Source: Chitinophagaceae bacterium (lineage in GTDB: Bacteria > Bacteroidota > Bacteroidia > Chitinophagales > Chitinophagaceae). Taken from it: a DNA stretch of 64,000 bases. The position numbers were made by a program, and so were the translations under genes. This document shows, piece after piece, positions 8,004 to 60,428 of this stretch (positions within the stretch are counted from its first letter, which is position 1; each line of letters begins with the position of its first letter). Under the pieces are notes generated by a model. The model did not search any database and was not told the origin of the DNA. It saw only the letters and a list, made by a program, of their open reading frames with translations. The stretch is taken from positions 637-64,636 of the forward strand of contig JADJOC010000005.1 of NCBI GenBank assembly GCA_016713965.1. The letters are read 5' to 3'.

Positions 8004-8123
8004 ATTGCTTGCTGAAGTGCAGGTATTTGAAAATATCTCGTTTGGTAGCTTAATATTCTAAAGATGAGTAAAGAAAAAAATGTTGATAGCGGTTCCGTCC
8101 AGCCTGCATTGCAGCAAGCAAAT
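8004..8123 (+). repeat. intercistronic long hairpin E3 (loop contains the methyltransferase start codon)
   Basis: ATTGCTTGCTGAAGTGCAGG (8004-8023) pairs with CCTGCATTGCAGCAAGCAAAT (8103-8123): 20 positions with 1 G.T and 1 mismatch. Confidence 0.6.
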
Positions 8124-17024: not shown

Positions 17025-17528
17025 TTATAATTCCACTATAATACCTACTATTTGTACAAATTTATCATGCTTATTCTTTTCAACTACGGCTTTACAGCTT
17101 ACTAAAAGCTGTTTATTATTAGAGGTAATAGTAAATTTCTCGTCAAAAAATATTTTTTTAGTAACCATCTCTTGCCATGAATAACGTATTTTATCAGCTT
17201 CTAGTATGTGTTTATACCAGCCTTGCGCCGCCTCTTGTGTTAAATCAAACATTTCACACCAAGCTGGATTAACATAGATAATGTTACCTGTTTCGTGGTC
17301 TGCCATGAATATAGCGAAAGGGGATAGTTTTATGAGAGAGCCTATTTTTAATTCGTGGGTGTGAACAACATTATCTAAAGTATTAAATTTTTTAGATAAT
17401 CCTAATTGATTTTTACACCAAAGGTAAGCTGGTTTGATAAATTTTTGATAGCCCTTCCATGCTCCTATGATGGCAGTTCCAGCTACGCCGTAATTTACTA
17501 TGAGTTGTTTTATATAACCCCAATCCAT
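17025..17528 (-). CDS. membrane-anchored PAS-domain protein (167 aa)
   Basis: N-terminal hydrophobic helix, then a PAS-like core FAIFMADHETGNIIYVNPAWCEMFDLTQEAAQGW... Confidence 0.5.
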   Translation of the reverse strand: MDWGYIKQLIVNYGVAGTAIIGAWKGYQKFIKPAYLWCKNQLGLSKKFNTLDNVVHTHELKIGSLIKLSPFAIFMADHETGNIIYVNPAWCEMFDLTQEAAQGWYKHILEADKIRYSWQEMVTKKIFFDEKFTITSNNKQLLVSCKAVVEKNKHDKFVQIVGIIVEL

Positions 17529-18345: not shown

Positions 18346-18771
18346 TTAATTTTCTGGTTCTACTATCCACCATTTTAAAATGCTATTATCATTTTCATTT
18401 ACTAAATTAAAAGGCTCTGGATAAGCCAGTTCACTTCTTATTATAAAAGAAACTCCATCAACAATATCTTCTTCACGTACTATTAAAACAAATGGTTCTA
18501 ATGTTCCAAAATTAGGTTTTTTATACGAAAAAAACACTACACTTTTTTTAGTTATTTTTTTAGTAAAAACGTTTGCTAATCCTGCCACTAATGTAGCCTC
18601 TCCTAGTGATGAATTTAACCCATTTTTTACATATAACTTATCCCTAATTAACAAATCCCCATTTATATCTAAGGTTTTTTGGGGATTTGTTGTATTAATC
18701 CCTACCATTTTTTGGGCATAAATATTAAATGATACACAAAACAAGAGTGTATATAAAATGGCTATTCTCAT
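18346..18771 (-). CDS. secreted protein with signal peptide (141 aa)
   Basis: MRIAILYTLLFCVSFNIYAQ signal peptide from the ATG at 18771. Confidence 0.5.
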   Translation of the reverse strand: MRIAILYTLLFCVSFNIYAQKMVGINTTNPQKTLDINGDLLIRDKLYVKNGLNSSLGEATLVAGLANVFTKKITKKSVVFFSYKKPNFGTLEPFVLIVREEDIVDGVSFIIRSELAYPEPFNLVNENDNSILKWWIVEPEN

Positions 18772-18772
18772 A

Positions 18773-47747: not shown

Positions 47748-47927
47748 ATGCCAACACTACCATTAAAATCCATTCCTAAAGAAGTAAATGATTATGTTTT
47801 GAAAATACAAACTCAAATAAAGATAAAAAAAGGAGTTAGCCATTATTCAAAATGCTTAACAATTTACCACATAATAAAAGAACACAAGGAGATTAAGGAA
47901 AAGGAGATGAAAGAAAAAAAAGTTTAG
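47748..47927 (+). CDS. ribbon-helix-helix-like small DNA-binding protein (59 aa)
   Basis: Hand-translated MPTLPLKSIPKEVNDYVLKIQTQIKIKKGVSHYSKCLTIYHIIKEH... It is a lone + strand ORF between portal and terminase, with a 4-nt convergent overlap with terL. Confidence 0.45.
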   Translation: MPTLPLKSIPKEVNDYVLKIQTQIKIKKGVSHYSKCLTIYHIIKEHKEIKEKEMKEKKV

Positions 47928-50026
47928 TTTGTTTTTGCTACATAGGAGTTATTAGGATATAGCTTTATTAGGGGGGTAGTCATTGGGGTAGGTTTTGGTG
48001 TTGGCTCCATTAAACAAGAAATTAGCATTAAAAAAGAAACAATAACATCATAAGCTGTTCTGTCATAAGGATCAAATACTTTTGCTGTAGTAAGCACTTC
48101 TTCAAAATCAATTAAATCACAATGATTTTCAAAATAAGCAATGCCATTATCCAATTGTTTAGTTAAACTAAATGGAGTTATTGGAGTACCTCGATGCCTT
48201 TCTGCCTTTTCTCTTTTCGTAGGGTCAATTAAACTAATAGGGTATTTCCCCAAATAGCCAATCTTACCTCTTTCCCTAAAATAACCTTCATAATCATCTG
48301 CGGTATGCTCATACCAAGTTAAATAGCCATAAAATTCACTAGCTAACATTACTTGACTGTGAAGTTCATCTTTAACTTGTGGACGACCATATAAATGTCC
48401 AATAGCTTTGCCTGTATTATAAGGGTCATTAACATCAAATTTTCTACCAATCCATGCAGACGCTTTTGAGCCGTATTTTCTACCACCTTGTGAGTTAGAA
48501 TAACTATCTACAGTAATACATCCATCTTCTATTCGATCTGGCATAGTAATTCTACCATCTCTTTTAAATTTATTATCTTGTCCACTAGGGGGGAAATAGG
48601 TTATTTTCCAATGAAAACTTTTTTCATTATTTGTAACATCACGCCATTTTACTTTTTGATCCATATCCCTATAAAATATAACTGACCTTTTATATATTTT
48701 ATGCTCTTTTAAATATTCTTCCCTTCGAGAAATGTTATGCATGTTAAATACACAATCAGTATTTGCAGCCATAAACATCTCTACTTCATTAAAAGAGTAT
48801 TTACGTATTTCTTCTTCTAAAGCTGCTCCTTTTAATTTACTTCGTCTTTTTTCTAAATATGCCTTTGCGCCAAATTTAAGTTGCCCATCATATTTTTTTT
48901 CACCATATTTTTCTATTAAATATTTTTTTTGTTCTTCTGTTGGTGGTTCAATTATTGATTCCCCATATTTACCAATAAACCCTGCAAGCCCATCATAAGC
49001 AGGGCAATAATAACGTACTAAAGTATTGGCTGTGGCTTCATTATCCATATCCAACACTTCATCAACTTCATCAATATCTATATCATCTTTTATCCAGTCG
49101 GCATCATCCCATACTTTTTTAAATTCAGCACCCCCCTTTTTTGTAAGTTCATTTACCGTACTTGGGAATTCTCCGAACCCTGTACGCTCTGCACCTTCGG
49201 TTAAAGTTTCTAAGATAATAGAAACAAATTGAGAGAAAGGAACATCTGTTGGGAACTTGCCCCCTTCATCAATGAAAGCCCATGTAAGCCTTTCCGAATC
49301 ATAGCTATTTGTTGCTGTAGGCTGGTAATCTAATATAGAATTTAGCCCTTCTACTTCATCAATTAATTGCGCTTTTTTTGTTTTCTTTGTTTTTGCCAAA
49401 GGAACATTAAAAACAAGTTCACTTTTACTATCCTTATCATTAGCTAAAGTAGGCTGTAGAAAAAATGGCAAATGTCTAAACCCAAATTGCATCCTGTAAA
49501 TAAACATTTTACGGGCATCCGCACTTGTTTTAGATACATGCCCACCCCTTGCATTTTTAGTTGTGGTTACATGACAAGTAGTATTAGATGAAGATTCAGA
49601 AGATGCACCAGAACGCCTTGATTTACCACGAATGATACCACGACACCAATAAACATTATACCAATGTTCTAAATACAAATAATATCTTCTGCTGGTATCT
49701 CTATATTCAGGATGCTTTCTATTTTCAAGTGTCCAGTATTGTAAGTAATAATAATGCCGCCCTGTTATATAAGTAGCAACCCCATTCAAAAAAAACCAAA
49801 ACCCTTTTTTTATTCTTTCCAGTTCTCTATTACAAAATTTTTCTTGTTCATTTGTTAGAACCACATTACCATCTTCATCACGTTCTAATACCTTAAATAT
49901 TTTTGGCAAAGGTTTCCTGCGCCAGTATTGTTCTTCTTTCGGAACTCCCCAATCTTCTATTTCTTCAATATGTGGTTGATTTGGTAGTGTGATTTTGGTA
50001 TGATATATTTCTATTATTTCCCCCAT
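47924..50026 (-). CDS. terL: terminase large subunit (700 aa)
   Basis: Size, the Walker-B-like WAFIDEGGKF, a P-loop-like RGKSRRSGAS, and its position upstream of the portal. Confidence 0.75.
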   Translation of the reverse strand: MGEIIEIYHTKITLPNQPHIEEIEDWGVPKEEQYWRRKPLPKIFKVLERDEDGNVVLTNEQEKFCNRELERIKKGFWFFLNGVATYITGRHYYYLQYWTLENRKHPEYRDTSRRYYLYLEHWYNVYWCRGIIRGKSRRSGASSESSSNTTCHVTTTKNARGGHVSKTSADARKMFIYRMQFGFRHLPFFLQPTLANDKDSKSELVFNVPLAKTKKTKKAQLIDEVEGLNSILDYQPTATNSYDSERLTWAFIDEGGKFPTDVPFSQFVSIILETLTEGAERTGFGEFPSTVNELTKKGGAEFKKVWDDADWIKDDIDIDEVDEVLDMDNEATANTLVRYYCPAYDGLAGFIGKYGESIIEPPTEEQKKYLIEKYGEKKYDGQLKFGAKAYLEKRRSKLKGAALEEEIRKYSFNEVEMFMAANTDCVFNMHNISRREEYLKEHKIYKRSVIFYRDMDQKVKWRDVTNNEKSFHWKITYFPPSGQDNKFKRDGRITMPDRIEDGCITVDSYSNSQGGRKYGSKASAWIGRKFDVNDPYNTGKAIGHLYGRPQVKDELHSQVMLASEFYGYLTWYEHTADDYEGYFRERGKIGYLGKYPISLIDPTKREKAERHRGTPITPFSLTKQLDNGIAYFENHCDLIDFEEVLTTAKVFDPYDRTAYDVIVSFLMLISCLMEPTPKPTPMTTPLIKLYPNNSYVAKTN

Positions 50027-50379: not shown

Positions 50380-50694
50380 TTATTTTGGATTTTTTATTTT
50401 CAATCTCCACTGTTCAATAGTAAGAGGATGAAATTCTTTTTGCAAGTATCTTATTTCTACATTTCCAAATTGCTTATCTGGCTTTCCCCAACCTTTATGA
50501 GAATGTTTATCCCAAGGAATATTTGAAATCTCAATATCACTATCATGTTTAATCCACTCATAATTTAATGGGAATGGTATCTCTACATCATAAATTATTC
50601 TTAAATTCCATTTTGTTTGCCAAGCAATTTTATCTATATAATAATTAAGATATTCTACCGATTCATTAATTCTACTTTCTAAGTAAACACTCAT
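50380..50694 (-). CDS. hypothetical phage protein (104 aa)
   Basis: ATG at 50694, just after the groES fusion's stop. Confidence 0.5.
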   Translation of the reverse strand: MSVYLESRINESVEYLNYYIDKIAWQTKWNLRIIYDVEIPFPLNYEWIKHDSDIEISNIPWDKHSHKGWGKPDKQFGNVEIRYLQKEFHPLTIEQWRLKIKNPK

Positions 50695-50696
50695 TT

Positions 50697-51236
50697 TTAA
50701 ACATCTTTGAGTAAACAATCAGATTCCCTCATCAGCAAATATTTTTCTTCATTAATTTCTATATATGTTCCAACACCTTGCCCAAACTTTACCCTATCTC
50801 CTTTTTTAATTTCCATTGATTCATTAAATTTTCCTTTGCCAGCAGAAATAACTAATCCCATTTGTATTTTTTCTTTTATCCCATCAGGAATTATTAAACC
50901 ACCTTTTGATTTGGTTTTAGCATCATCTAATTTTACCAAAATCCTATCTTCTAATAAGATTACTTCATCCCCATCTAAAATAATTAAAACATCAGTCTCC
51001 TTTAAAATAAAATATTTTTTACCATTTTCTTCAAACTCAATTACATTACTATAATATATAGTGTTCCCAATTTTTACAGTCATTTTTCGTCCAGTAATAC
51101 CACCACCAACTGCTATTACTTTACCACTAATATATTTTTTTTTTACTGAATCACGAATTATTATACCCCCCTTAGTTTCACTTGATACCTCAAAAGGCTC
51201 TACTATTATTCTATCTTGTAATGGCCTAATTCTCAT
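50697..51236 (-). CDS. groES: tandem-fused double co-chaperonin (two GroES/Cpn10 domains, 179 aa)
   Basis: Domain 1 is MRIRPLQDRIIVEP...TKGGIII...GKVIAVGGG...ETDVLIIL. Domain 2 is LEDRILVKLDD...SKGGLIIP...GLVISAGKG...KKGDRVKF...ESDCLLKDV. Confidence 0.8.
   Translation of the reverse strand: MRIRPLQDRIIVEPFEVSSETKGGIIIRDSVKKKYISGKVIAVGGGITGRKMTVKIGNTIYYSNVIEFEENGKKYFILKETDVLIILDGDEVILLEDRILVKLDDAKTKSKGGLIIPDGIKEKIQMGLVISAGKGKFNESMEIKKGDRVKFGQGVGTYIEINEEKYLLMRESDCLLKDV
51181..51236. repeat. direct repeat copy A (5' end of the fused groES)
   Basis: 44 of the first 45 nt are identical to 52850-52894. Confidence 0.8.
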
Positions 51237-52815
51237 TTGTTTTTATTTTTTCTAGTGAAATAATAGATTCTGTTGTTAAAAAAATTGCAGCAATAGATGA
51301 TGAGTTTTCCAAAGCTGTTCTTACTACTTTTGTTGGATCAACAATACCAGATTTAAAAAAATTCTCTATTTCATTTGTTTTTACATTATACCCAATTCCA
51401 TAATCACTTTTCATAATTTCATTTATATAAATATTAGGTTCTACATCTGCATTATATAAAATTTGTTTAAATGGAGATTCTAGTGATTTTTTAAGAATAG
51501 AAACTCCAATGCTTTCGTCTTCATTTTCACAAATAATATCAATATCTTTTAAAGCATGTAAGTATGTAACTCCACCACCAGCTACAAACCCTTCTTCTAC
51601 TGCTGCTTTGGTAGCACATAAAGCATCATCTATTCTATCCTTTTTTTCCTTAATCTCTGTTTCCGTAAACCCTCCTATACTTAACACAGCCACGCCATTT
51701 TTTAATTTAGCTAATCTTGATTTAAGGTTTTCTTTTTCATAATTAGATTCAGCTTCTTCCATTTGATTTTTTATTTGATTACACCTGCTTTCAATATCTT
51801 CCTTAATACCATGCCCGCCAACTATTGTACAACTATCTTTAGTTATTGTTATTTTATCTGCACTACCCAACATATCAATAGTAGTATTGTCCAACCTAAA
51901 CCCTTTTTCTTCTGAAATGCAAGTAGCATTTATTAATGTTGCAATATCATCCATAACAAAAAATCTATTACCCCCAAATTCAGGTAATTTTATTGCACAA
52001 ACAGATAATAATCCCCTCAATTTATTCACTACCATTGTTGCCAATGCTTCACCATCAAGGTCTTCCGAAATAATTAATAACGGACGGCCAGTTTGAGAAA
52101 CTTTTTCTAAAATATGTAAAATATCTTTAATGGCAGAAATCTTTTTATCATAAATTAGAATGTAAGGATTATTTAATTCTGCCTGCATTTTTTCACTGTT
52201 AGTTACAAAGTAGGGAGATAAATATCCCCTTTCTATTCTCATTCCTTCAACCAAATTTACAGTAGTTTCATGTCCTTGTGATTCTTCAACAGTAATCAAA
52301 CCATCCCTACCAACTTTTTCCATAGCTTCTGCAATCAATTCCCCAATAAAAGAATCATTATTTGCAGAAATGGAAGCTATTTGTTTTAATAAATCATTAT
52401 TATCAATAGGTTTAGAGATTTTATTAATGTTTTTTACTACTTCTTTAGTAGCCTTTTCGATACCTCTTTTTAAATCCATTGCATTTGCGCCTAATTCAAT
52501 AGCCTTAATTCCTGCATTTATAATGGCTTGTGCCAAAACAGTTGCCGTAGTTGTGCCATCACCCGAAACATCAACAGTCTTAGATGCTACTTCTTTGATT
52601 AAAGATGCTCCCATATTTTCAACAGGATCAGACAATTTAATTGATTTTGCCACAGTTACCCCATCTTTGGTTATATGAGGATACCCAAATTCTCTTTCAA
52701 TAATAACATTCTTCCCTTTTGCTCCTAATGTACTTTTTACAGCATCAGCAAGAATATTGATACCTTTTACTATTTTTTTTCTTCCATCTGACCCTGATGT
52801 TACGATTGTATTCAT
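51226..52815 (-). CDS. groEL: chaperonin GroEL/Cpn60 (529 aa)
   Basis: GDGTTTATVLA nucleotide-binding motif, AAVEEGFVAGGGV, and co-linearity with bacterial Cpn60 over the full length. It lacks the GGM C-terminal tail. Confidence 0.9.
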   Translation of the reverse strand: MNTIVTSGSDGRKKIVKGINILADAVKSTLGAKGKNVIIEREFGYPHITKDGVTVAKSIKLSDPVENMGASLIKEVASKTVDVSGDGTTTATVLAQAIINAGIKAIELGANAMDLKRGIEKATKEVVKNINKISKPIDNNDLLKQIASISANNDSFIGELIAEAMEKVGRDGLITVEESQGHETTVNLVEGMRIERGYLSPYFVTNSEKMQAELNNPYILIYDKKISAIKDILHILEKVSQTGRPLLIISEDLDGEALATMVVNKLRGLLSVCAIKLPEFGGNRFFVMDDIATLINATCISEEKGFRLDNTTIDMLGSADKITITKDSCTIVGGHGIKEDIESRCNQIKNQMEEAESNYEKENLKSRLAKLKNGVAVLSIGGFTETEIKEKKDRIDDALCATKAAVEEGFVAGGGVTYLHALKDIDIICENEDESIGVSILKKSLESPFKQILYNADVEPNIYINEIMKSDYGIGYNVKTNEIENFFKSGIVDPTKVVRTALENSSSIAAIFLTTESIISLEKIKTNEN

Positions 52816-52836
52816 ATTGATTTTTATATTTTATGA

Positions 52837-52905
52837 TTAATTATTTGTACTTGATACCTCAAAAGGCTCTACTATTATTCTGTCTTGTAATGGTTTTACT
52901 TTCAT
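52837..52905 (-). pseudogene. truncated groES remnant (22 codons) in the canonical position upstream of groEL
   Basis: MKVKPLQDRIIVEPFEVSS then TNN-stop. There is a 21-nt spacer to the groEL ATG, and its ATG overlaps the stop of the upstream gene (ATGA). Confidence 0.7.
52850..52905. repeat. direct repeat copy B
   Basis: See copy A; the two copies bracket groEL. Confidence 0.8.
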
Positions 52906-53501
52906 ACTGTAACTGTTTGTTTATTTAAATCTGTAATTGTTTCTCCCTCTTTTATATAAATTACTTTATCAATAATAATAAAGTGTTTATATGGAGTATT
53001 AGTATTGTATTCAATAACATTTGCAATTTCTCCAGTTGAATAAACTTGAATTTTTTTAATTGAATTTGCTGGTGATAATCTTCCCATATCAAAATGATCT
53101 TCTTTACTAAAATAAAGAATTGTAGTGTGATCTTTTTGTTCTGCTTGAATAATTGTAACAGAAATTGATAAATACCCCTTTATATCTTTATTATTTATAG
53201 TAAATAAATACCCATCAAAATATAATTGATAAAGAAAATCAGGTGTAATTTCGTTAGAAGGGGGATATTGTACTGCAATAACTTTTTTAATTTCTTCAAA
53301 ATCATCCCCATCTAAAATTAGATATGACAACCCGTCTAATTTTGGGTAATTATAAAAATCTAAATATCTGGAATATTCGTGCAATAGTTTAATTGGTTTA
53401 ATAATATCATCATTATTAAATTTGGATATTTTTTCTTCTTTATAAACATCAAGAAAAATTAATAGCCTTTTTAAATTGTCATAAATTGCTTTGTTCGTCA
53501 T
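52902..53501 (-). CDS. hypothetical phage protein (199 aa)
   Basis: ATG at 53501 avoids overlap with the upstream gene. Confidence 0.5.
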   Translation of the reverse strand: MTNKAIYDNLKRLLIFLDVYKEEKISKFNNDDIIKPIKLLHEYSRYLDFYNYPKLDGLSYLILDGDDFEEIKKVIAVQYPPSNEITPDFLYQLYFDGYLFTINNKDIKGYLSISVTIIQAEQKDHTTILYFSKEDHFDMGRLSPANSIKKIQVYSTGEIANVIEYNTNTPYKHFIIIDKVIYIKEGETITDLNKQTVTV

Positions 53502-53506
53502 ATATT

Positions 53507-54181
53507 TTATTTTATTGGTTTTGCATTTTGCGGAGTAGTACCTACCCATAATTTACCTTCATACAACTGCTCGGTTAAGTTTTCGTCTATCGCAATTATT
53601 TCCTCTCTGTCATGTGTTTCATTTTCAAAATGCCTGCACCTTACTATGTGTTCATCCACCCCTTTTTCATTTCTAAAAAGTATGTTGTAATCACATGCTT
53701 TCAATGTTTTAACTACTTTACCTTTGTATTCCCCTGTTTTTATAAATAAGGTGTCTTTGAATAGTTTTGGGGTTAAACCTACCAGCCTACCTTCGTAGGG
53801 CTTATATACCCTTTCAGCAATCGCAAATCCTTTGGTTGGCTTCCATTCTTCATCTCCCACCATCTTCCATAAAAAACACTCTGCTTCTACAAAGCTATAA
53901 ATTTTTATTCCAGATGCAATTTCTTCGCCACTTAACCCACTATGATTGGTTATTAAGTTGGAATCATGTGCGCTGTTAAAATGGAACAACAACAAAGCAT
54001 CTGTGGGGATATGCTCTGCTGATATTACTACTCCTAATATTTGTTGGGTGTAACTTCTATCCAGGTTATCATACTTACGCTCTACCCTTATAGTAGTTCC
54101 ATCTGAAAAGGTATAGAAGTTCTTTTGCTCTGTATCTACCTTTACTATTACTCTGCCTTGTACGTGTTTTAGTTTGTTCAT
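53507..54181 (-). CDS. hypothetical protein with a GroES-like N-terminus (224 aa)
   Basis: LKHVQGRVIVKVD...ILGVVISAE is weakly reminiscent of Cpn10/gp31-type co-chaperonins. Confidence 0.5.
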   Translation of the reverse strand: MNKLKHVQGRVIVKVDTEQKNFYTFSDGTTIRVERKYDNLDRSYTQQILGVVISAEHIPTDALLLFHFNSAHDSNLITNHSGLSGEEIASGIKIYSFVEAECFLWKMVGDEEWKPTKGFAIAERVYKPYEGRLVGLTPKLFKDTLFIKTGEYKGKVVKTLKACDYNILFRNEKGVDEHIVRCRHFENETHDREEIIAIDENLTEQLYEGKLWVGTTPQNAKPIK

Positions 54182-54939
54182 GGTCTGTTTTTAATCCAGT
54201 CTAACATAATTTTTGGATGTGGGTAATCAATAATACTTAAATCTGTTTTTGGGTCAAACCATAAATCAGGGTTAAATAATTCTTCCTGATCTAATTTTTT
54301 ATCGTAATCCATTCCAAAAACATCCCTTTGCATATTGATAACCTTTGATTTCATTACTTCTTTTTTTCTTACAAATCCATAATGCCAAATATCAATATCA
54401 TTTACATAATCCATTATACATTGTGCATCTATACTTTCAGCATCTCCTATTGATCGGTAACAAGTTTTTGCAAGCCTTATTATTTGAGTGCTACATGGTT
54501 TTCTTTCATGTGGAACATTCAAATAATGGTAAGGAGTTTTCCAAAGATTTATCCGTGTACACATAAATGCTTCCTTACCTGTTTTAACCGCTTTTATTAT
54601 TGCATCATAACTTTTTTCATGGATTATTTCATCTGCTTGAAGATTGAGTTGGTACTCATATCCTGCTTTTTCTGCTGCTTCAATGGCTATGTTGGTAAAG
54701 TAATTTAGTTTTTCTTTACCATGTTGCTCATGCCATGATTCAGGTAAAAGCCTTATAAAGGTTGTTTTATCATCACATAAATTAAGTAGTATATCTTTAT
54801 CTGTATCATCATCTGACCCTGCATCTAAAATAAACACATGATCGCAAAATTCTTTCAAACATTTGATTGATTCAGCATAACAATAATCAAATGTTTTTCC
54901 ATTTCGCACAAATAAAGTTCCAGCTAATTTTTTACTCAT
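54178..54939 (-). CDS. glycosyltransferase family 2-like (253 aa)
   Basis: FVRNGKTF...FILDAGSDDDT is an N-terminal GT-A nucleotide-sugar-binding pattern. Confidence 0.55.
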   Translation of the reverse strand: MSKKLAGTLFVRNGKTFDYCYAESIKCLKEFCDHVFILDAGSDDDTDKDILLNLCDDKTTFIRLLPESWHEQHGKEKLNYFTNIAIEAAEKAGYEYQLNLQADEIIHEKSYDAIIKAVKTGKEAFMCTRINLWKTPYHYLNVPHERKPCSTQIIRLAKTCYRSIGDAESIDAQCIMDYVNDIDIWHYGFVRKKEVMKSKVINMQRDVFGMDYDKKLDQEELFNPDLWFDPKTDLSIIDYPHPKIMLDWIKNRP

Positions 54940-55658
54940 ACTATAAATTTACCTTTTAAATCAATATCATCATAATCCTTTAAACGCTCCCTTATATAAT
55001 CCATACGCATATTTATTTCCCATTCCCTATCCATGTGGTTAGCTACATTCCAAGATAGTTTACCAAAGTGAATATGCGAGCCATAATCCATTCCTAATAC
55101 ATCTTTATCAATATTACCTTTCTTTCTATCAATTTGATGATGCGTAAACCCGTGTTCAAATATCTTTTCTGTCATCCAGCTTCCAACATCGTAACTCCAA
55201 TCTGTTGTATCTCTAAATGTATGTACCCCTTTTTCTTTCATCGCTTCAATATCAAACATAAAAAACCATGCTCCTATACGTGGTTTAACTGGTGCATTTA
55301 ATTGATCGCCTGTAATTAATTCCCCCGCTACCTTACATTTTTCGTTTAATAATGGCAAATACTTATCATATACATTTTCTAAAAACTCTACATCGGTATC
55401 GCACAGTAAAACATATTTTGTTTCTATATTAGTATATACAATATTAACAGATTGTTCATGCCCGTGATTAATGATAAAATCATAAAATGGTATTTTATTT
55501 TCTTTTAACCATTCTTTAGAACCGTCATCGCTCCCATTATCCACCAGTAATAATTTTAAAGGCTCTCCTTTATAGTGATGCTTAACAAAACTTTTTAACA
55601 TCAATTCCATTACCGTTTTGTTATTCCAGCTTACTGAAACTAAGGTTATATCTTGCAT
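54936..55658 (-). CDS. glycosyltransferase family 2 (240 aa)
   Basis: TLVSVSWNN...LLLVDNGSDDGS...LLCDTDVEF, with a DxD motif. Confidence 0.65.
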   Translation of the reverse strand: MQDITLVSVSWNNKTVMELMLKSFVKHHYKGEPLKLLLVDNGSDDGSKEWLKENKIPFYDFIINHGHEQSVNIVYTNIETKYVLLCDTDVEFLENVYDKYLPLLNEKCKVAGELITGDQLNAPVKPRIGAWFFMFDIEAMKEKGVHTFRDTTDWSYDVGSWMTEKIFEHGFTHHQIDRKKGNIDKDVLGMDYGSHIHFGKLSWNVANHMDREWEINMRMDYIRERLKDYDDIDLKGKFIV

Positions 55659-56285
55659 TTACATTTTTTTAATGATAACTAATCCGCAACTTGTAAAAAT
55701 CCATTCGATGTTTTTTTCAAAATAAGTGGCATCGTATTTTTTTACGGCTTCCTGCTTGTTGGCACAAATAAAACTATTGGGTATTTTGCCATTCATTTGT
55801 ACCTCTCCTACCATATCCTTTATCCTGTCTATTATTTTCACTTTTTCATTCCAGCGAGAATCATATCCGCACAAAACATCCTCGATGCAATACAAGCCTC
55901 CACTCTTTAAAAGAGGAAATAAAGTGTTAAATGAAATTAATTGATGCTCTCCTATATGTGATCCATCGTCAATAATAATATCAAATGAAGGATGTAAATC
56001 AAATAAATTCATTAATTGAGAATGAGAACTTTGGTCGCATATTATTGTTCTTATTCTTTCTGAATTAAATTGTTTTTTATCTTCAATATCAATACCTACT
56101 ACATCTGCATTTACAAAGTATTCTTTCCACATTTTTAGTGATGCCCCTTCCCAAACTCCTATTTCTAATAAATTTTTAACCTTATCTTTTAACGGGCTAA
56201 AAAACATCTCATAATATTGTAAATAATTATGACAAGTAGATGCTTTATCTGTTTGATATTTTAAACCCAATTCATCTAAACTCAT
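55659..56285 (-). CDS. class I SAM-dependent methyltransferase, sugar O-methyltransferase-like (208 aa)
   Basis: YQTDKASTCHNYLQYYE...LLEIGVWEGASLKMW...VGIDI...IIDDGSH. Confidence 0.65.
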   Translation of the reverse strand: MSLDELGLKYQTDKASTCHNYLQYYEMFFSPLKDKVKNLLEIGVWEGASLKMWKEYFVNADVVGIDIEDKKQFNSERIRTIICDQSSHSQLMNLFDLHPSFDIIIDDGSHIGEHQLISFNTLFPLLKSGGLYCIEDVLCGYDSRWNEKVKIIDRIKDMVGEVQMNGKIPNSFICANKQEAVKKYDATYFEKNIEWIFTSCGLVIIKKM

Positions 56286-57046
56286 ATTTGTTTTATTAAA
56301 TGTGAAAATTGTTCTTTATTTTTTTGTACATATTCAGGAAAACTATCATCAATCTCCACAAATGGCCATAAATCATGTGGCTCATTTGACCATAAAGACT
56401 GCCCTATTTCTAATTTATGTTTCAGCACTTCTTCATTATTAAGTTTTGGCGTGTTACATTCCTGATGTGAAAAACTATCCAACTTATTTCTTATAGCTTC
56501 CACACCACCCAAATACGACCAATGCCAGCCAGCGTGTTCTATTTGGTTATCAAAGCCACTATTTCGGACTTCATTTGGTGTTTTATCTTTCAGGTAACTA
56601 TAAGGCATAATCCTTGAAGACTTCCAACTTTGTTTCCCTTCTATACAATTTAAAAAGTAACCAAACTTATCCATTACTAATGCCGTCTGCCCCATCCCTA
56701 TATGGTAATTTTTTATGGCTTGCGCTCTAGGTATTTCGTCCGCATCGCCTATAATAACTATATCACTATCATTACAATTTTCTAATCCCAATATAATATT
56801 ATTTCTTTGGAATTTTTCATTATCCCATGCATTCCCATTGTTAGGTGGATTATTAATTATCCCATGAATAATATTGTATCCCCTAAATTCATCATAATTT
56901 TCTTTAAAAAATAGTGGTTTAGGTTTTCCCGTAAAGGAGTGAGTACATTCTACCAATACATGATTTACATTTAGTGGTTTTAATTCTTCGCACCTTATTT
57001 TTAATAAATCAAATTCCTTAAAAAAGGTAAAGCAGTCGTATATCAT
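56282..57046 (-). CDS. glycosyltransferase family 17-like (254 aa)
   Basis: MIYDCFTFFKEFDLLKIRCEEL...FTGKPKPLFF...QRNNI...IIGDADEIP matches the GT17 N-terminal signature. Confidence 0.7.
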   Translation of the reverse strand: MIYDCFTFFKEFDLLKIRCEELKPLNVNHVLVECTHSFTGKPKPLFFKENYDEFRGYNIIHGIINNPPNNGNAWDNEKFQRNNIILGLENCNDSDIVIIGDADEIPRAQAIKNYHIGMGQTALVMDKFGYFLNCIEGKQSWKSSRIMPYSYLKDKTPNEVRNSGFDNQIEHAGWHWSYLGGVEAIRNKLDSFSHQECNTPKLNNEEVLKHKLEIGQSLWSNEPHDLWPFVEIDDSFPEYVQKNKEQFSHLIKQI

Positions 57047-58458
57047 TGTTGGTGAAATTTATTAATAGTATCAATTACAGTTTCGTAATCAGTTTTGCAA
57101 CATTGCAAATGTTTTTCATCTCCAAAGTAAGCGCAGTCTTGTCCTTTTGTTCCTCCTACAATATGCCAGCATCCAGCTTTATCACAATTACTTTGTATAA
57201 TTTCTACATTGGTTAAATCAGGATGGATGTAATCAGGATTTACCGAGCCGAAAAACAATATGCAAGGTTTATTATAGGCTACGGCAATTCCCGCTGGTGC
57301 GCTATCTTCTCCAATAAAAAAATCACATCCTGCAATTAACCATTTTAACACCCCTACTTTACCAAAGGTATTGTAATGTTGCCCACATTTATTATTTCCA
57401 CTACCTATTTGTAAAACAAAATACCCTAATGCTTCCAAATGTTTTTGCACTTTCTTCCAATCAACTCCTAAAATATTTCTATGAGGTGTTGAACGATCGT
57501 CATTATGAATGACAACATATTTTTTAAAAGGTTTTGTTACTTCATCTACCAAAGGCCAAAGGATAGGGCGTGTAAGTGTGTAATCTTTAATACCACAAAA
57601 TTCAAAGTAGCTTTTTTGATAGTTTTGGCATGGCTTAACTTCGTATGCCATATCAAGATTAATTTCTTTTTCTGGCTTAATCCTGCCAATATCAAACTGT
57701 GAAATATGTTTTATAGGGAAATAATGTTGCTCAAATAACGCAAAGCAATCTGCTGGAATATCCAGCACTACATTATATCCTTGCATGTAAAAATGCCGCA
57801 TAATAGGCTCTAAAATAACAATATCTCCTATTGCACCCGAACGTTTTAAAATAACCGTAGGTTTATACGGCTCATGAAAATATCCATGAAAACCAAATGT
57901 TTTACTTGCTGGCTCTCTTAATTCATAAGCAAACCTATCAGCAACATGCTCTGGTGCAAATTTAATCCCGTGCTTACCTTTTAAATAATCACCGTATAAA
58001 ATACAAATAGACTGATCTTCGGGATGGCAAATGTCAATTAAATCATCTGTTCCTAATATTGTTTGCAGTTTTTTTGAGCGCAAAGAAAACCCACCATTCC
58101 CTACATTTCTTCCATGCTGGTACAACCACGGTGCGCCAATGTAATCATAATTTAAAAAGTAATTACCCCATACACTACCATCCAATACCCAAGCATCATG
58201 TTGTGTTACTAATACATAATCTGTATCAAAATATTTATATAACTCCTTCACCACGAAATCACTATAATCTTCTTTACTTTTTATGGATGGTATTTGCACA
58301 ACTTCAATACCTTCTATTTCTAAAGGTATATCCGTTAAAAACTTAACGGCTGCAAACTCACATTGCTTCATAGATTTTTGTAAAGAATCTACTGCTTTCC
58401 CGTAATTATAACAGTCTGCTAACACTAAACAAACATTTGGTAATTTTATTCTATTCAT
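57043..58458 (-). CDS. two-domain glycosyltransferase: DUF5672-like N-domain + GT9 (heptosyltransferase-like) C-domain (471 aa)
   Basis: N-domain has ...DYIGAPW...VGNGGFSLRSKKL. C-domain has ILKRSGAIGDIVILEPI... and FIGEDSAPAGIAVAYNKPCILFFG. Confidence 0.6.
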   Translation of the reverse strand: MNRIKLPNVCLVLADCYNYGKAVDSLQKSMKQCEFAAVKFLTDIPLEIEGIEVVQIPSIKSKEDYSDFVVKELYKYFDTDYVLVTQHDAWVLDGSVWGNYFLNYDYIGAPWLYQHGRNVGNGGFSLRSKKLQTILGTDDLIDICHPEDQSICILYGDYLKGKHGIKFAPEHVADRFAYELREPASKTFGFHGYFHEPYKPTVILKRSGAIGDIVILEPIMRHFYMQGYNVVLDIPADCFALFEQHYFPIKHISQFDIGRIKPEKEINLDMAYEVKPCQNYQKSYFEFCGIKDYTLTRPILWPLVDEVTKPFKKYVVIHNDDRSTPHRNILGVDWKKVQKHLEALGYFVLQIGSGNNKCGQHYNTFGKVGVLKWLIAGCDFFIGEDSAPAGIAVAYNKPCILFFGSVNPDYIHPDLTNVEIIQSNCDKAGCWHIVGGTKGQDCAYFGDEKHLQCCKTDYETVIDTINKFHQQ

Positions 58459-58841
58459 ACAATCATATTGTAAATAAGTTTACTTAATAAAAAAATAATA
58501 GCAAAAGAATTTAGAAAAATTAATGTCAAAATTGGTGAATTTATAAACATAAAATAATCATCATCAAAAAAAAAGGTTTTTAAATAAGAATCATCTGCCT
58601 TTTTAGTAAAAAATAAATAAAAAAACCTTATTATTAAATATAATAATAATAATATATTTAATGTTATATAAATTGTTATTAAATATTTAATTTTTTGTGA
58701 GTCAAATTCATTATTATTATTTGTAATAATTGGTATAGGCAGTACTCTTACTTGTGATTGGCAAATAAAAAAACTAAAAATCATTACTACAAATAATCCA
58801 ATTTTTGTTTTCATCATTTTATTTTTGTCTTGCTCTAGCAT
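58455..58841 (-). CDS. multi-pass membrane protein (128 aa)
   Basis: About 3 hydrophobic helices, embedded in the glycosyltransferase island. Confidence 0.5.
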   Translation of the reverse strand: MLEQDKNKMMKTKIGLFVVMIFSFFICQSQVRVLPIPIITNNNNEFDSQKIKYLITIYITLNILLLLYLIIRFFYLFFTKKADDSYLKTFFFDDDYFMFINSPILTLIFLNSFAIIFLLSKLIYNMIV

Positions 58842-59024
58842 AGCTGTTTTCTTTTATTTTCCAAATTATATCTCCGATTCTATTAATTCACCATTTTCAA
58901 TAATACTTATTACTTTATGTTATTTAGTATTAGGTGACCTGCCACCATAATCTATAAAACATATCATATCATCTAATTTTATATTAGATGCTTTTCTTTT
59001 AATAAAAAAAGGAAAATTCATATA

Positions 59025-59867
59025 TTAATTTATTAGTTTATCAAAATAATACTCCAAAGATTTTTGTTTATAAAAAGCATGTCCATTTGCCCCTGTAGGA
59101 AAGGTATTAGGAAATTGGGTACATAGTTCTAAAATGCGTGGCACTTTTTGGGCATCTGCCAAATGCCAGCAAAAACTCTGGTTACCCAAAAAGCCTGCAC
59201 TTGAATTAATTACCCTTGCGAGTTCATTAAAATCATTTACAATTAATCGTGGAACATCTAATTTCCACGCAGAGCAAAATTTTTCATGCTCATTTTCTGT
59301 TCCTGCAAATATTATTTTATGTTGGAAATTTTTCAAAAAGTAATAGGATATATAAACGTTTTGGTAACGCTCGGTACGGTTAATAATTATTTTATCACTT
59401 AAATTTATTTTGCCTTTTGTTGTTTCAGCTTCTCCCAAAGGATAACAATTTAACCATTTTTCTGATAAATCACAACTCATTTCAGGGTAAATTGTCCAAG
59501 AATAATGATGCAACAACCCTGCTGGCATCGGAATTACCTTACTATCTCTTATTAAATCAATATTATAATCAACTTCTTGCCCTTCCCAAATTTCAAATTT
59601 TTCAATATAATCTTGGCTTTCCAATAAAGGTTTTAACATCTCCCACATCCCTCTATTCATACAAACAATATTGTTTTGTAGGTCTTTAACAGGGTGAATG
59701 TCATTTATAATGTTATTTTTCTCATCATAAAAATAAGCAGGGAAGTCTAAATTTTGATAAACTATAGCTTTTTTACCCGTTTTTTTATATAAATGTTTAA
59801 GCCCAGATAGTAAAACAATCAAATCCCCACTATTAAATGAGTGTTTTACAATAATAAATTCTGACAT
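59025..59867 (-). CDS. GT9-like glycosyltransferase (280 aa)
   Basis: FNSGDLIVLLSGLKHL near the N-terminus and LGNQSFCWHLADAQKVPRI near the C-terminus parallel the heptosyltransferase motifs. Confidence 0.5.
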   Translation of the reverse strand: MSEFIIVKHSFNSGDLIVLLSGLKHLYKKTGKKAIVYQNLDFPAYFYDEKNNIINDIHPVKDLQNNIVCMNRGMWEMLKPLLESQDYIEKFEIWEGQEVDYNIDLIRDSKVIPMPAGLLHHYSWTIYPEMSCDLSEKWLNCYPLGEAETTKGKINLSDKIIINRTERYQNVYISYYFLKNFQHKIIFAGTENEHEKFCSAWKLDVPRLIVNDFNELARVINSSAGFLGNQSFCWHLADAQKVPRILELCTQFPNTFPTGANGHAFYKQKSLEYYFDKLIN

Positions 59868-59950: not shown

Positions 59951-60193
59951 ATGGCACAAATAATAACTGTATCTACCTATGCTACTGGTCCATATGATTC
60001 AGGTAGCGCAATGGGATTTTCAAAGGGCTTCCCTGTTCAAAACATTTTTCCTGAACAAATAACCCCTGAAACTCGTTCAGGAGTAGTATGTAATGCAACC
60101 ATTACACTTTTACCTACTGGTTTAAATGTAAACGGAAAGAAATTTTATACTGCAATGACATTGGCTCAAATAATTACAGCCAGTAATGCTTAG
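59951..60193 (+). CDS. small Ser/Thr/Gly-rich protein with its own strong terminator (80 aa)
   Basis: Lone + strand ORF. MAQIITVS at the N-terminus is echoed by LAQIITAS at the C-terminus. It contains an N-A-T sequon. Confidence 0.55.
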   Translation: MAQIITVSTYATGPYDSGSAMGFSKGFPVQNIFPEQITPETRSGVVCNATITLLPTGLNVNGKKFYTAMTLAQIITASNA

Positions 60194-60216: not shown

Positions 60217-60242
60217 AAGCCTCATTGTGAGGCTTTTTTTAT
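60217..60242. terminator. strong intrinsic terminator (bidirectional position)
   Basis: AAGCCTC-attgt-GAGGCTT followed by TTTTTTTATT; sits between convergent genes. Confidence 0.75.
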
Positions 60243-60428
60243 TCCAAAAGTATTGTTAGAATGTACAACTACCTGTTGAGTTGAATAATGCCTAACAATA
60301 CCTCCTTCACAATGTACACAAGTCCAAATATCATTTTCAAATTGTTCGCCCGATTGAACATACAATAGATAAGCTTCTTTATTATCTTCTACGACTACTG
60401 GTATTGGATATGGTGCAAATTCAATCAA
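60222..60428 (-). CDS. hypothetical phage protein (68 aa)
   Basis: Intact ORF. Confidence 0.5.
   Translation of the reverse strand: MIEFAPYPIPVVVEDNKEAYLLYVQSGEQFENDIWTCVHCEGGIVRHYSTQQVVVHSNNTFGIKKASQ

Follow-up and report, generated by a model that had tools for sequence, protein, structure and literature searches.

The window, the whole 64 kb stretch of DNA that was analysed, covers 64 kb of a ~78-kb phage genome. At 54178-59867 it carries seven co-oriented ORFs (A to G), all on the minus strand; each was found where the original prediction had placed it, and every sugar-transfer motif quoted there was present in the translations. These ORFs and the other genes considered here are as follows.

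p224, 53507-54181, minus strand: downstream neighbour linking the cassette to p115, TerL and portal; context, not a cassette enzyme.
A, 54178-54939, minus strand: divergent GT2-like (GT-A) protein with DAGSDDDT and QADE motifs; core in most related loci.
B, 54936-55658, minus strand: GT2-family glycosyltransferase with VDNGSDDGS and DTD motifs; variable cargo.
C, 55659-56285, minus strand: class I SAM-dependent methyltransferase (Methyltransf_24, TylF-like); variable cargo.
D, 56282-57046, minus strand: GT17-family glycosyltransferase; variable cargo.
E, 57043-58458, minus strand: fusion of DUF5672 and GT9; core gene.
E C-terminal half (residues 196-471), 57046-57873, minus strand: short GT9-like GT-B domain with a four-cysteine finger, TibC-like.
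E N-terminal half (residues 1-195), 57874-58458, minus strand: DUF5672, GT-A-fold glycosyltransferase domain.
F, 58455-58841, minus strand: 128-aa hydrophobic protein; outside the conserved system.
G, 59025-59867, minus strand: free-standing GT-B glycosyltransferase of GT9-like type, lacking the Cys4 finger; core gene.
ORF80, 59951-60193, plus strand: 80-aa S/T/G/A-rich protein, divergent from G.
562-aa Ser-rich protein, 18773-20461, minus strand: YadA-head-like repeats; speculative second candidate acceptor.

Overlaps of 4 nt were found at p224/A, A/B, C/D, D/E, and E/F; B and C abut, the 183 nt between F and G form the sole gap, and five junctions within the seven-ORF block overlap by 4 nt or abut. 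The cassette is a translationally coupled unit encoding soluble enzymes in the order G-(F)-E-D-C-B-A, followed by chaperonin, terminase, and portal genes, and its GC content (0.32) is the same as that of its flanks. TerL, portal, GroEL, and GroES were identified in the window; the cassette lies between these genes and the early/late switch, the position in the late arm that had been proposed. p224, which gave a weak GroES-like signal (phrog_13932, 0.0043), follows the cassette in most related loci.

Four of the seven ORFs (B, C, D, and E) passed the Pfam gathering scores. B matched PF00535 (34.9 bits, cutoff 23.3; 1.8e-8), D matched PF04724 (GT17; 93.5 bits, cutoff 26; 1.8e-26), and C matched PF13578 (30.1 bits, cutoff 26.3; 9.3e-7) as well as phrog_21658 "methyltransferase" (3e-31) and is a probable sugar O-methyltransferase. 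About half of the related loci contain D, some of them in duplicate, and C and B travel together in seven related loci. A had no match of its own in Pfam, NCBIfam, or PHROG; among 22 members of its family, 10-11 matched the GT2 families PF00535 or PF13704, weakly. A has 390 homologues, and D44, Q101, D103, and E104 are invariant. The original prediction had counted six enzymes, and this number stands, as do the glycosyltransferase and methyltransferase assignments, which were obtained from Pfam for B to E, from homologues for A, and from profile and fold for G. The second of its two "GT2" enzymes, A, is better described as divergent GT2-like, a placement read solely from its homologues.

E is a fusion protein in which PF18922 (DUF5672) matched residues 57-191 (72 bits, cutoff 24.4; 5.7e-20) and PF01075 (GT9) matched residues 371-430 (28.3 bits, cutoff 22; 1.4e-6). 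The N-terminal half carries the invariants Q86-x-D88, GNGGFS, and E147-D148, and its AF2 fold resembles the GT-A enzymes GlyE, ABO GT6, and chondroitin synthase; DUF5672 proteins are found in giant viruses and phages. The top PDB fold match of the C-terminal half was TibC (5e-12, 18% identity), followed by 3tov, WaaF, and WaaC, and this half is probably a heptosyltransferase. In a MAFFT alignment read with the TibC features given in PMC4358343, E and TibC both had an N-lobe deletion of ~58 aa, TibC Asp110 corresponded to E D212, and Cys339/342/358/370 corresponded to C425/430/442/453; E retained the WaaC/F-type "DS" motif. The Cys4 finger and short N-lobe also occur in Chlamydiae homologues and in a chromosomal Chitinophagaceae homologue (L119), whose neighbours are an MsbA-like ABC transporter, GT25, GT4, and an FkbM methyltransferase; to judge from these homologues, the two features are not specific to protein-modifying enzymes. 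In four related loci the E halves are separate genes, adjacent, overlapping, and in reverse order, suggesting that the two domains work together.

G had no match of its own in Pfam, NCBIfam, or PHROG; 1284 homologues were found at E<=1e-3. Its GD (G14 D15) is invariant. In hhalign, G aligned with the E family over E residues 199-421 (probability 88%, E 3e-6), and its AF2 model (pLDDT 93) best matched the GT9 structures 3tov, WaaC, and WaaF (Foldseek: 3tov 1.2e-5, WaaC 2.9e-5; TM up to 0.62). Profile comparison and the modelled fold thus both mark G as GT9-like. By fold comparison G lies nearer to LPS heptosyltransferases than to TibC, which speaks against a virion protein as acceptor. A loop of G (59648-59769) is variable between close relatives.

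ORF80 has its own terminator (a hairpin and T-run at 60217-60235) and has homologues in 33 of the ~44 related loci, in almost every case immediately upstream of G and in divergent orientation to it. In two loci it is relocated together with G, and one close relative carries a diverged allele. In two others, fibre-like proteins of 618 and 982 aa, whose genes lie between G and E, begin with the ORF80 domain as their first 80 residues; the larger of the two matches a cyanophage "virion structural protein" over residues 76-408. ORF80 is therefore a candidate for a virion-attached module and acceptor. No convincing covariation was seen between ORF80 and the variable G loop (partial r = 0.14), and the ORF80-G linkage could stem from a shared divergent promoter alone.

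F, a membrane protein that the original prediction had included in the island, does not belong to it. No homologue of F was found in 76 related loci, and in contigs of four metagenomes with about 96-97% identity, 48 nt stand in place of 58414-59031 (58413 joined to 59032). F is a strain-specific insertion that these four near-identical relatives lack.

The cassette lies immediately upstream of p224-p115-TerL-portal in ~44 viral contigs from IMG/VR and metagenomes, and in those that keep it E is conserved on a par with the portal protein (45-65% vs 51-57%). No full-length E was found within any large chromosome contig; all carriers were contigs of <=82 kb. These results bear out the view that the genes are phage-borne rather than host O-antigen genes, and the restriction of full-length E to such contigs makes lysogenic conversion unlikely; the phage may nevertheless be temperate, as the window encodes a tyrosine recombinase. 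The lineage is an uncultured, ~78-kb, crAss-muzzle-bearing podophage of Bacteroidota from wastewater and freshwater. G, E, and A are its core genes, and D, C, and B are exchangeable accessories; A is missing from the HldE-bearing sub-lineage. Two components had been regarded as unusual phage cargo. The DUF5672-GT9 fusion, which was not found among cultured phages, is not rare: it has >120 full-length metagenome homologues (52-80% identity) and is core in this lineage. Cyanophage glycan islands also combine GT17 and DUF5672 genes with methyltransferase genes.

No heptose-pathway gene was found within the 64 kb of the window. Two related loci encode GmhA (2e-66 and 4e-60) and nine encode a split HldE (kinase and adenylyltransferase ORFs); because eleven related phages thus encode GmhA or split HldE, heptose is the likely donor. 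The most likely product of the cassette is a methylated glycan that contains heptose. The heptose would be transferred by G and by the C-terminal half of E, both of GT9 type, from NDP-heptose supplied by the host or, in some relatives, by phage GmhA and split HldE. As GT-A enzymes, A, B, D, and the N-terminal half of E would lengthen the chain with other sugars, and C would cap it through O-methylation. Differing accessory sets may give differing glycans among related phages.

As the acceptor of this glycan we tentatively favour a phage virion protein, a reading drawn by analogy and held a little short of even odds. The protein would receive the glycan in the cytoplasm, ahead of assembly or while it proceeds, as in the serine O-heptosylation carried out by TibC/Aah. 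The first candidate would be the ORF80 family, a fibre-anchor-like module paired genetically with G, and the second the Ser-rich YadA-like fibre, which contains 21% S+T overall and 47% in its richest 30-aa window, gives a weak YadA_head match, and is followed by a K1-lyase_C chaperone ORF (18346-18798).

Host envelope remodelling, in which the enzymes would work from the cytoplasmic side with lipid A-core or an undecaprenyl-linked glycan as acceptor (LPS core, capsule, or a Bacteroidota O-glycan precursor), is a weaker possibility that we consider rather unlikely. An altered surface could block superinfection, prevent progeny from sticking to debris, or change the receptor. LPS-core heptosyltransferases are the classical members of GT9, G has WaaC, WaaF, and 3tov as its nearest folds, and the WaaC/F "DS" motif is retained in E. 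Within the probable host family, the chromosomal homologue nearest to the E GT9 half (L119) is surrounded by genes of LPS-core-like type and carries the same Cys4 finger; LPS loci likewise show a conserved core with a variable periphery, and cyanophage islands combine GT17, DUF5672, GT2, and methyltransferase genes with surface-polysaccharide-type sugar-nucleotide pathways. However, Pfam scans of the window ORFs returned no family beyond those named here, so that an initiating phosphoglycosyltransferase, flippase, polymerase, ligase, and Gtr-type membrane enzyme appear to be absent, as judged from the list of families that these scans reported. The position of the genes at the start of the morphogenesis operon is constant, and a virion-type module is paired with them; scores against the NCBIfam RfaQ, RfaF, and RfaC equivalogs were far under cutoff (about 22 vs 467, 16 vs 135). 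Prophage copies were not found in large chromosome contigs, and any envelope effect would therefore need to operate within a lytic cycle. Between LPS and a virion protein, the choice leans to the virion protein.

We regard it as improbable that heptose-containing glycans are placed on a hydroxylated or hydroxymethylated base before packaging, as a defence against restriction. LPS-enzyme-related phage glycosyltransferases are reported to decorate 5hmC with hexose, HexNAc, heptose, and Kdo, with some of their genes adjoining structural or terminase genes (bioRxiv 10.1101/2023.12.21.572611); the cassette is just upstream of the terminase, and the heptose activation encoded by related phages parallels the kinase and cytidylyltransferase of the heptosyl-5hmC pathway. 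The lineage also encodes C5-cytosine methylases, one of 708 aa ~3 kb upstream of E in a related locus and a methylase-like ORF at 8064-8768 of the window. The latter, however, is 46 kb away from the cassette, whereas known clusters place the transferase either beside a C5-MT and 5mYOX or beside ThyS. As the original prediction had noted, no hydroxymethylase or nucleotide kinase was visible in the 64 kb; nor was a thymidylate-synthase-like enzyme or TET/5mYOX, and Thymidylat_synt was not among the best 25 of 63 families flanking 44 related loci. The GT-B enzymes known to act on DNA are of the T4 beta-GT-like type, not GT9. Phage DNA is reported to carry mono- to trisaccharides (bioRxiv 10.1101/2023.12.21.572611), and the product of up to seven transferase domains and a methyltransferase should therefore exceed these.

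Similarly doubtful is a non-virion protein acceptor, either a host protein or an exported phage adhesin-like protein of the TibA/AIDA-I type. The 562-aa YadA-like protein starts with a signal-peptide-like sequence, MKKLLLSIFIIFLFYGSFSQ, and heptosylation of BAHT substrates takes place in the cytoplasm, ahead of export (PMC4358343); yet the neighbours of this gene are tail genes, with a tail-fibre-type chaperone ORF coming next, and its conservation alongside the cassette is without support. Sequestration of host NDP-sugars, akin to the "sponge" proposed by the authors of the DNA-glycosyltransferase study (bioRxiv 10.1101/2023.12.21.572611), is equally improbable, since a methyl-capped multi-enzyme pathway exceeds what it would need.

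Among known systems, phage DNA hypermodification clusters resemble the cassette in using glycosyltransferases from cell-envelope enzymes, in the possible use of heptose, and in lying, in some cases, near structural genes, but their 5mYOX/ThyS neighbours were not found here and their transferases are T4 beta-GT-like rather than GT9. As for WaaC, WaaF, and WaaQ (CAZy GT9), E matches PF01075, GD and DS(G/A) motifs are present in the cassette, G has 3tov, WaaC, and WaaF as its nearest folds, and the two GT9-type domains recall the sequential heptose additions of WaaC and then WaaF; in contrast to these enzymes, E is missing ~58 residues of the acceptor-binding lobe, and the cassette, unlike their loci, is phage-borne and opens a morphogenesis operon, with no accompanying Kdo or lipid A genes. 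In the islands of Synechococcus phages RN05-S, S-B05, and S-B43, D (GT17) has homologues at 25% and the E DUF5672 domain at 31%. In such cyanomyovirus islands, these lie within ~3 kb of each other and are accompanied by GT2 and methyltransferase genes, but the islands are much larger, with complete sugar-nucleotide pathways and GT11 fucosyltransferases, and have no GT9 half, no fusion, and no position at the terminase. DUF5672 proteins, as in E, are common in giant viruses, and chloroviruses, whose capsids are glycosylated in the cytoplasm by virus-encoded soluble glycosyltransferases, have multi-domain transferase/methyltransferase enzymes comparable to the cassette. As far as the summary of Freeman et al. 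2023 in PMC12619734 goes, mycobacteriophage virions are likewise glycosylated by virus-encoded soluble glycosyltransferases that modify structural proteins in the cytoplasm; in both systems the transferase families differ from those described here, where the acceptor is only a candidate.

The closest comparison is with the BAHT enzymes TibC/Aah (PDB 4rap, 4rb4), the top structural match of the E C-terminal half over about 310 columns. E differs from TibC in having a GT-A domain instead of the N-terminal beta-barrel, no evident beta-hairpin thumb, and "DS" where TibC has "PS"; TibC R286 and W305 are not conserved, E scores 13 bits against TIGR04414 (cutoff 200), and no autotransporter gene adjoins the cassette. 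The TibC-type Cys4 finger also occurs in cellular homologues in LPS-like contexts. Nevertheless, E shares with TibC the shortened four-stranded N-lobe, the catalytic Asp, the four-Cys finger at the same insertion point, the "GCW" motif, and the character of a soluble, cytoplasmic enzyme, and ADP-heptose is a plausible donor, because relatives encode GmhA and HldE.

The window carries a conserved, phage-borne cassette, encoding several sugar transferases and a methyltransferase, which heads the morphogenesis arm. The seven ORFs of this cassette (A to G, in the gene order G-F-E-D-C-B-A) and the peptide motifs cited in the original prediction were all present in the translations at the positions proposed for them. 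Overlaps of 4 nt occur at p224/A (p224 is the next ORF toward TerL), A/B, C/D, D/E, and E/F, B and C abut, and the sole gap, between F and G, measures 183 nt. The GC content of the cassette (0.32) is the same as that of its flanks. Pfam membership was defined as a score above the gathering threshold, and four of the ORFs (B, C, D, and E) passed. GT17 additionally called for a match spanning most of the catalytic part, and GT9 for a GT-B fold bearing GD near the N-terminus and a D-S/T-G motif in the C-lobe.

Cassette ORFs, their Pfam assignments, and reference features of the window
45182-47542: portal
47924-50026: TerL
54178-59867, minus strand: the seven cassette ORFs
A, 253 aa: no Pfam match of its own
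B, 240 aa: GT2 (PF00535), 34.9 bits against a cutoff of 23.3; DTD is a DxD-type motif
C, 208 aa: Methyltransf_24 (PF13578), 30.1 bits against a cutoff of 26.3
D, 254 aa: GT17 (PF04724), 93.5 bits against a cutoff of 26, profile positions 75-299 of 348
E, 471 aa: residues 57-191, DUF5672 (PF18922), 72 bits against a cutoff of 24.4; residues 371-430, GT9 (PF01075), 28.3 bits against a cutoff of 22, only these residues being matched
F, 128 aa: no family
G, 280 aa: no Pfam match of its own
59951-60193, plus strand: ORF80, 83 nt from the G start, with its own hairpin and T-run terminator at 60217-60235

Glycosyltransferase families had been predicted for A, B, D, E, and G. Pfam confirmed those of B, D, and E, whereas A and G themselves showed no match in Pfam, NCBIfam, PHROGs, or PDB sequences. 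The PDB matches returned for A and G by single-sequence and profile searches were at chance level (quinolinate synthase, 0.021; GmaR, 0.078) and were rejected. C also matched phrog_21658, annotated as "methyltransferase" (3e-31). The A family comprises at least 390 proteins, in which a DAGS.DGT motif is conserved and D44 and Q-A-D-E are invariant. GT2 Pfams were weakly matched by 10-11 of the 22 sampled A-family members, with A itself below threshold. Because A has no match of its own and the GT2 matches occur just in family members, its sequence supports the designation GT2-like only, and not that of a demonstrated GT2. G has 1284 detectable homologues, and by hhalign its profile aligned with the GT9 portion of E (probability 88%, E-value 3e-6). 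The best fold matches of the G AF2 model (pLDDT 93) were GT9 structures, namely 3tov (1.2e-5) and then WaaC and WaaF, so that G lies below the sequence threshold for GT9 and is placed in that family by its predicted fold.

The cassette is phage-borne. TerL, the portal, further virion proteins, GroEL, and GroES-like proteins are encoded in the same window, and among species-representative genomes the full DUF5672-GT9 fusion was found only on contigs of metagenome-assembled genomes of no more than 82 kb (Hanamia, Chitinophagaceae, Cyclobacteriaceae, and "Bacteroidetes"), never inside a large chromosomal contig. The possibility that these might be host O-antigen genes flanking a prophage was thus not borne out. 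The assignments and sizes of these contigs point to Bacteroidota hosts and give no sign of integrated prophages, a picture tempered by a tyrosine recombinase or integrase (278 aa; 11310-12146, plus strand) in the rightward arm. TerL is ~27% identical to the TerL of Flavobacterium and Cellulophaga podophages, and a nucleotide search of the cassette region against 50,697 GenBank phage records gave no match. Near-identical sequences came from metagenomes of wastewater, activated sludge, freshwater, and groundwater dated 2017 to 2025. A Pfam scan of 57 ORFs, which did not give the carrier ORF, returned crAss_MUZ (crassvirus muzzle protein; 5.8e-11) and SPP1_Dit, structurally tying the lineage to crAss-like podophages. 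A PAS-domain protein (167 aa; 17025-17528, minus strand), unusual in a phage, was observed among the tail-end genes.

Scanning IMG/VR with a single E sequence retrieved no loci, and an alignment-based scan retrieved 72, of which ~42 contained the full fusion. More than 120 full-length E homologues (52-80% identity) were present on metagenomic contigs of up to ~82 kb. The recurrent order was ORF80 (on the opposite strand), G, an occasional small ORF, E, variable ORFs, A, p224, p115, TerL, and portal. G, E, and A make up a conserved core, with D, C, and B as accessory genes. Identity across loci was 45-65% for E and 51-57% for the portal. The full D-C-B-A set was found in loci L016, L017, L018, L020, L034, and L037, and C-B-A in L014; many loci carry D alone, or unrelated ORFs of 170-250 aa instead. 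A is absent from one sub-lineage (L019, L023, L025, L026, L028, L031, L033, L035, and L047).

F, the membrane protein initially counted as part of the island, is a strain-specific insertion, since it has no homologue in any related locus and is missing from contigs, found in four metagenomes, that match the window over p224-A-B-C-D-E at 96-97% identity and join 58413 to 59032 via 48 nt. A 68-aa ORF (60222-60428, minus strand), whose homologue lies between G and E in many loci, lies beyond ORF80 in the window, indicating local rearrangement around the F insertion. The N-lobe loop of G (59648-59769, approximately residues 33-73, low pLDDT) contains a 6-codon insertion unique to the window; close relatives carry a 102-nt variant in its place, with flanks ~97% identical. 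The neighboring chaperonin genes are also accessory, since GroEL and p215 (51224-53514) are replaced by 221 nt in one close freshwater contig, and 50380-50695 (p112, possibly the source of a second Cpn10 match, for which the scan stated no ORF) is missing from three runs. GroES-GroEL again lies beside DUF5672 and GT9-like genes in distant lineages (L068-L072, L018, L020, and L040). Genes for an IS605 OrfB/Cas12f-like TnpB, YopX, and large N6/N4 and C5 DNA methylases were also seen near the cassette in relatives.

E was modeled by AF2 with a pLDDT of 89 and a pTM of 0.84. Its N-terminal DUF5672 half is predicted to adopt a GT-A fold, similar to GlyE (GT8) and ABO (GT6), both retaining, and to chondroitin synthase. 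DUF5672 proteins are common in giant viruses and uncultured phages, and the DUF5672 literature yielded one incidental mention. On the chromosome of Bacteroidetes bacterium SZAS-23 (L114, 6900-10618), five tandem ORFs of ~88 aa and a 162-aa ORF are followed by a 422-aa GT2+DUF5672 fusion and another GT2; this may be a cellular locus for glycosylating peptides or proteins in which DUF5672 takes part.

The top fold match of the C-terminal half of E was TibC (5e-12, 18% identity, ~310 columns), followed by 3tov (3e-10), WaaF (3e-8), and WaaC (3e-6). In ETEC, TibC serves as an iron-containing O-heptosyltransferase of protein (PMC4358343). When TibC (L123) was aligned with E. coli WaaC and WaaF and eight C-terminal halves of the E family, E and TibC had in common a ~58-residue N-lobe deletion and a short four-stranded N-lobe, the E model placing four strands in residues 201-267. 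The catalytic Asp in the N-lobe "GD" of TibC (D110) corresponds to D212 of E, which is invariant in the E family. Likewise, the iron-finger cysteines C339, C342, C358, and C370 of TibC, including that of "GCW", correspond to the invariant C425, C430, C442, and C453 of E, whereas WaaC and WaaF have gaps at these positions. In contrast to TibC, E has a GT-A domain at its N-terminus and no N-terminal beta-barrel, lacks the beta-hairpin thumb (the thumb region is ~12 residues shorter in the alignment), and has the WaaC/F-type "DS" where TibC has "PS". In TibC, barrel and thumb are features of dodecamer assembly. E scored 13 bits against a cutoff of 200 for the bacterial autotransporter heptosyltransferase equivalog TIGR04414, and it also fell below the NCBIfam equivalogs for LPS heptosyltransferases (RfaQ, 21.7 against 467; RfaF, 16.2 against 569; TIGR02195, 16.1 against 134.6). 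Unlike the autotransporter systems, in which the enzyme O-heptosylates Ser of a beta-helical protein whose gene lies beside its own, E is adjoined by no autotransporter gene and has only putative acceptors, ORF80 and a 562-aa Ser-rich protein.

The Cys4 finger was also present in short cellular GT9-like homologues, including those of Chlamydiae. One such homologue, on a Chitinophagaceae chromosome (L119), has neighbors encoding an MsbA-like ABC transporter, an FkbM methyltransferase, GT25, and GT4. The occurrence of the finger in such LPS-like contexts ruled it out as proof of a protein acceptor. Because the finger and N-lobe are common to TibC and the finger extends to cellular homologues, E belongs to a short, finger-bearing GT9 subfamily of which TibC is the sole solved member, and the resemblance to TibC is a lead toward a protein acceptor rather than proof. 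In L065 and L068-70, two separate genes, overlapping and in reversed order, encode the halves of E, which are unlinked in L076; this fusion and fission therefore indicates that the two activities cooperate.

A census of flanking ORF families in related loci revealed SIS_2, PfkB, and epimerase domains, and these loci were searched locally with the heptose activation enzymes GmhA, GmhB, HldE, and HldD of E. coli K-12; E. coli makes ADP-heptose. GmhA homologues were detected in L038 (15380-15958; 2e-66) and L042 (13481-14212; 4e-60), and a split HldE in nine loci (L019, L023, L025, L026, L028, L033, L035, L043, and L047). The latter consists of a 249-aa kinase ORF (HldE residues 13-302) and a 133-aa adenylyltransferase ORF (residues 340-474), located on the strand opposite to G and 3-6 kb upstream of it, and the sub-lineage bearing it is the one without A and D. 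An SDR epimerase gene immediately precedes E in L039 and L040; its match was weak and generic (1e-10). GmhB was found in none of the related loci searched, no single related locus held the complete pathway, and none of the four enzymes was found within the 64 kb of the window. Two further candidates were rejected: the upstream genes of L016 actually encode a sliding clamp, a C5-methylase, and DnaB, and the supposed extra pathway genes of L038 are a 312-aa ORF without a PDB relative and a 236-aa Thg1-like ORF. A homologue of Thg1-like tRNA(His) guanylyltransferase was located at 19757-20467 of L038 (1.4e-65 to PDB 4kgk). From the GmhA and HldE genes of the relatives, we infer that the lineage uses NDP-heptose and that both GT9-type domains are heptosyltransferases. 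The phage in the window would obtain its heptose donor from the host, or from genes in the ~14 kb of its 78,326-bp contig that lie outside the window.

ORF80, an 80-aa S/T/G/A-rich protein divergent from G, is the first candidate acceptor. Its family was detected in 33 of ~44 loci by local jackhmmer on the fetched loci, nearly always adjacent to and divergent from G; this search was far more sensitive than a word-index protein search, which found one other cluster. ORF80 relocates together with G in L039 and L040, and five loci carry it in duplicate. Fibre-like proteins of 618 and 982 aa, encoded between G and E in L029 and L030, have the ORF80 domain as their N-terminal 80 residues, and residues 76-408 of the 982-aa protein match a cyanophage "virion structural protein". 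Given the pairing with G, the co-relocation, and the fibre-protein fusions, we regard ORF80 as a probable virion-attached module, linked genetically to G. In a close relative, the ORF80 allele is strongly diverged at equal length and the N-lobe loop of G varies too; covariation between ORF80 and this loop was weak (partial r = 0.14) and is not claimed. A scan for sigma-70-type promoters, a model that does not cover Bacteroidota promoters, found 83 against 85.5 expected from shuffles.

The second, weaker candidate acceptor is the 562-aa protein at 18773-20461 (minus strand), which has Ser-rich YadA-head-like repeats and reaches 47% S+T in its richest 30-aa window. These G/S/A/T/N repeats are reminiscent of the TibA peptide carrying heptose on serine (PMC4358343). 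The start of this protein is signal-peptide-like (MKKLLLSIFIIFLFYGSFSQ), which is odd for a tail fibre, and a 150-aa ORF with a K1-lyase_C intramolecular-chaperone domain follows in another frame with a 26-nt overlap (the pair spanning 18346-20461).

The identity of the acceptor is something we infer throughout. A virion protein is the acceptor we tentatively favor, because the cassette has a fixed position and conserved core genes, has no prophage copies among the genomes searched, shows a TibC-like architecture and a link to ORF80, and is predicted to build a glycan larger than those known on DNA. In addition, the Pfam scans of the window ORFs reported no envelope-glycan export or ligation family, none being sought by name. 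In its fullest form, which is possible but doubtful as a whole, the lineage would O-heptosylate its own virion protein, either of the ORF80 fibre-anchor family or the Ser-rich fibre, and then extend the heptose. The TibC-like domain fused to the DUF5672 GT-A domain would act with the WaaF-like partner G, with GmhA/HldE supplying heptose in some members, and exchange of the GT17, GT2, and methyltransferase modules would vary the glycan coat from strain to strain.

Host LPS or a lipid-linked glycan, a less likely but still serious candidate acceptor in our estimation, would agree with GT9 being an LPS family, with the resemblance of G to WaaC/WaaF, and with the host-phylum homologue of the GT9 half of E in an LPS-like locus. 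The Pfam families reported in the window ORFs included no component of seroconversion modules (GtrABC, or O-antigen Wzy/Oac), such as a membrane flippase, a bactoprenol glucosyltransferase, or a membrane-bound glycosyl- or acetyltransferase, none being sought by name, and F, the sole hydrophobic ORF of the window, has no family and is missing from close relatives. DNA hypermodification is improbable. C5-methylases do occur in the lineage and heptosylated 5hmC is known in phages (bioRxiv 10.1101/2023.12.21.572611); however, the window ORFs yielded neither 5mYOX nor a ThyS-like hydroxymethylase, ThyS was absent from the best 25 of 63 flanking families in 44 related loci, and the DNA GT-B enzymes known so far resemble T4 beta-GT. 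Whereas DNA-glycosylation clusters combine a glycosyltransferase with a C5-methyltransferase and 5mYOX, or with a ThyS-like enzyme, the C5-cytosine DNA-methylase-like ORF of the window (234 aa; 8064-8768, plus strand; its Pfam match confined to the N-terminal third of the model) lies 46 kb away. Other protein targets also have little probability.

The anatomy of the cassette is solid and widespread, and its function is a proposal. Bacteroidota phages dominate wastewater, freshwater, and gut viromes, and to our knowledge very little is known of glycosylation in them. In the literature searched, we found no description of the TibC-like fusion of DUF5672 with a short GT9, of E together with a second GT9-like enzyme and one of GT2-like type forming a core across the lineage at the terminase, of phage GmhA or split HldE in these relatives, or of the ORF80 coupling. 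DUF5672 gains a concrete partner, a short Cys4-finger GT9, fused or as an adjacent gene, and phage heptose activation genes are tied to a transferase set. Virion-protein heptosylation, if true, would be the first in a virus and would give DUF5672 its first functional context. With a virion protein as acceptor, the variable D, C, and B would constitute a strain-level glycan code bearing on adsorption, stability, and recognition; with LPS or DNA, the cassette would be a novel means of excluding superinfection or countering restriction. Glycosylation encoded by phages is known to target DNA and host O-antigen. The phage glycosylation cassettes already known are cyanophage glycan islands, DNA-glycosylation clusters, and mycobacteriophage virion glycosylation, a recent addition (Freeman et al. 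2023, as cited in PMC12619734), and beside these the present cassette belongs to the core of a widespread uncultured lineage and keeps a fixed position in it.
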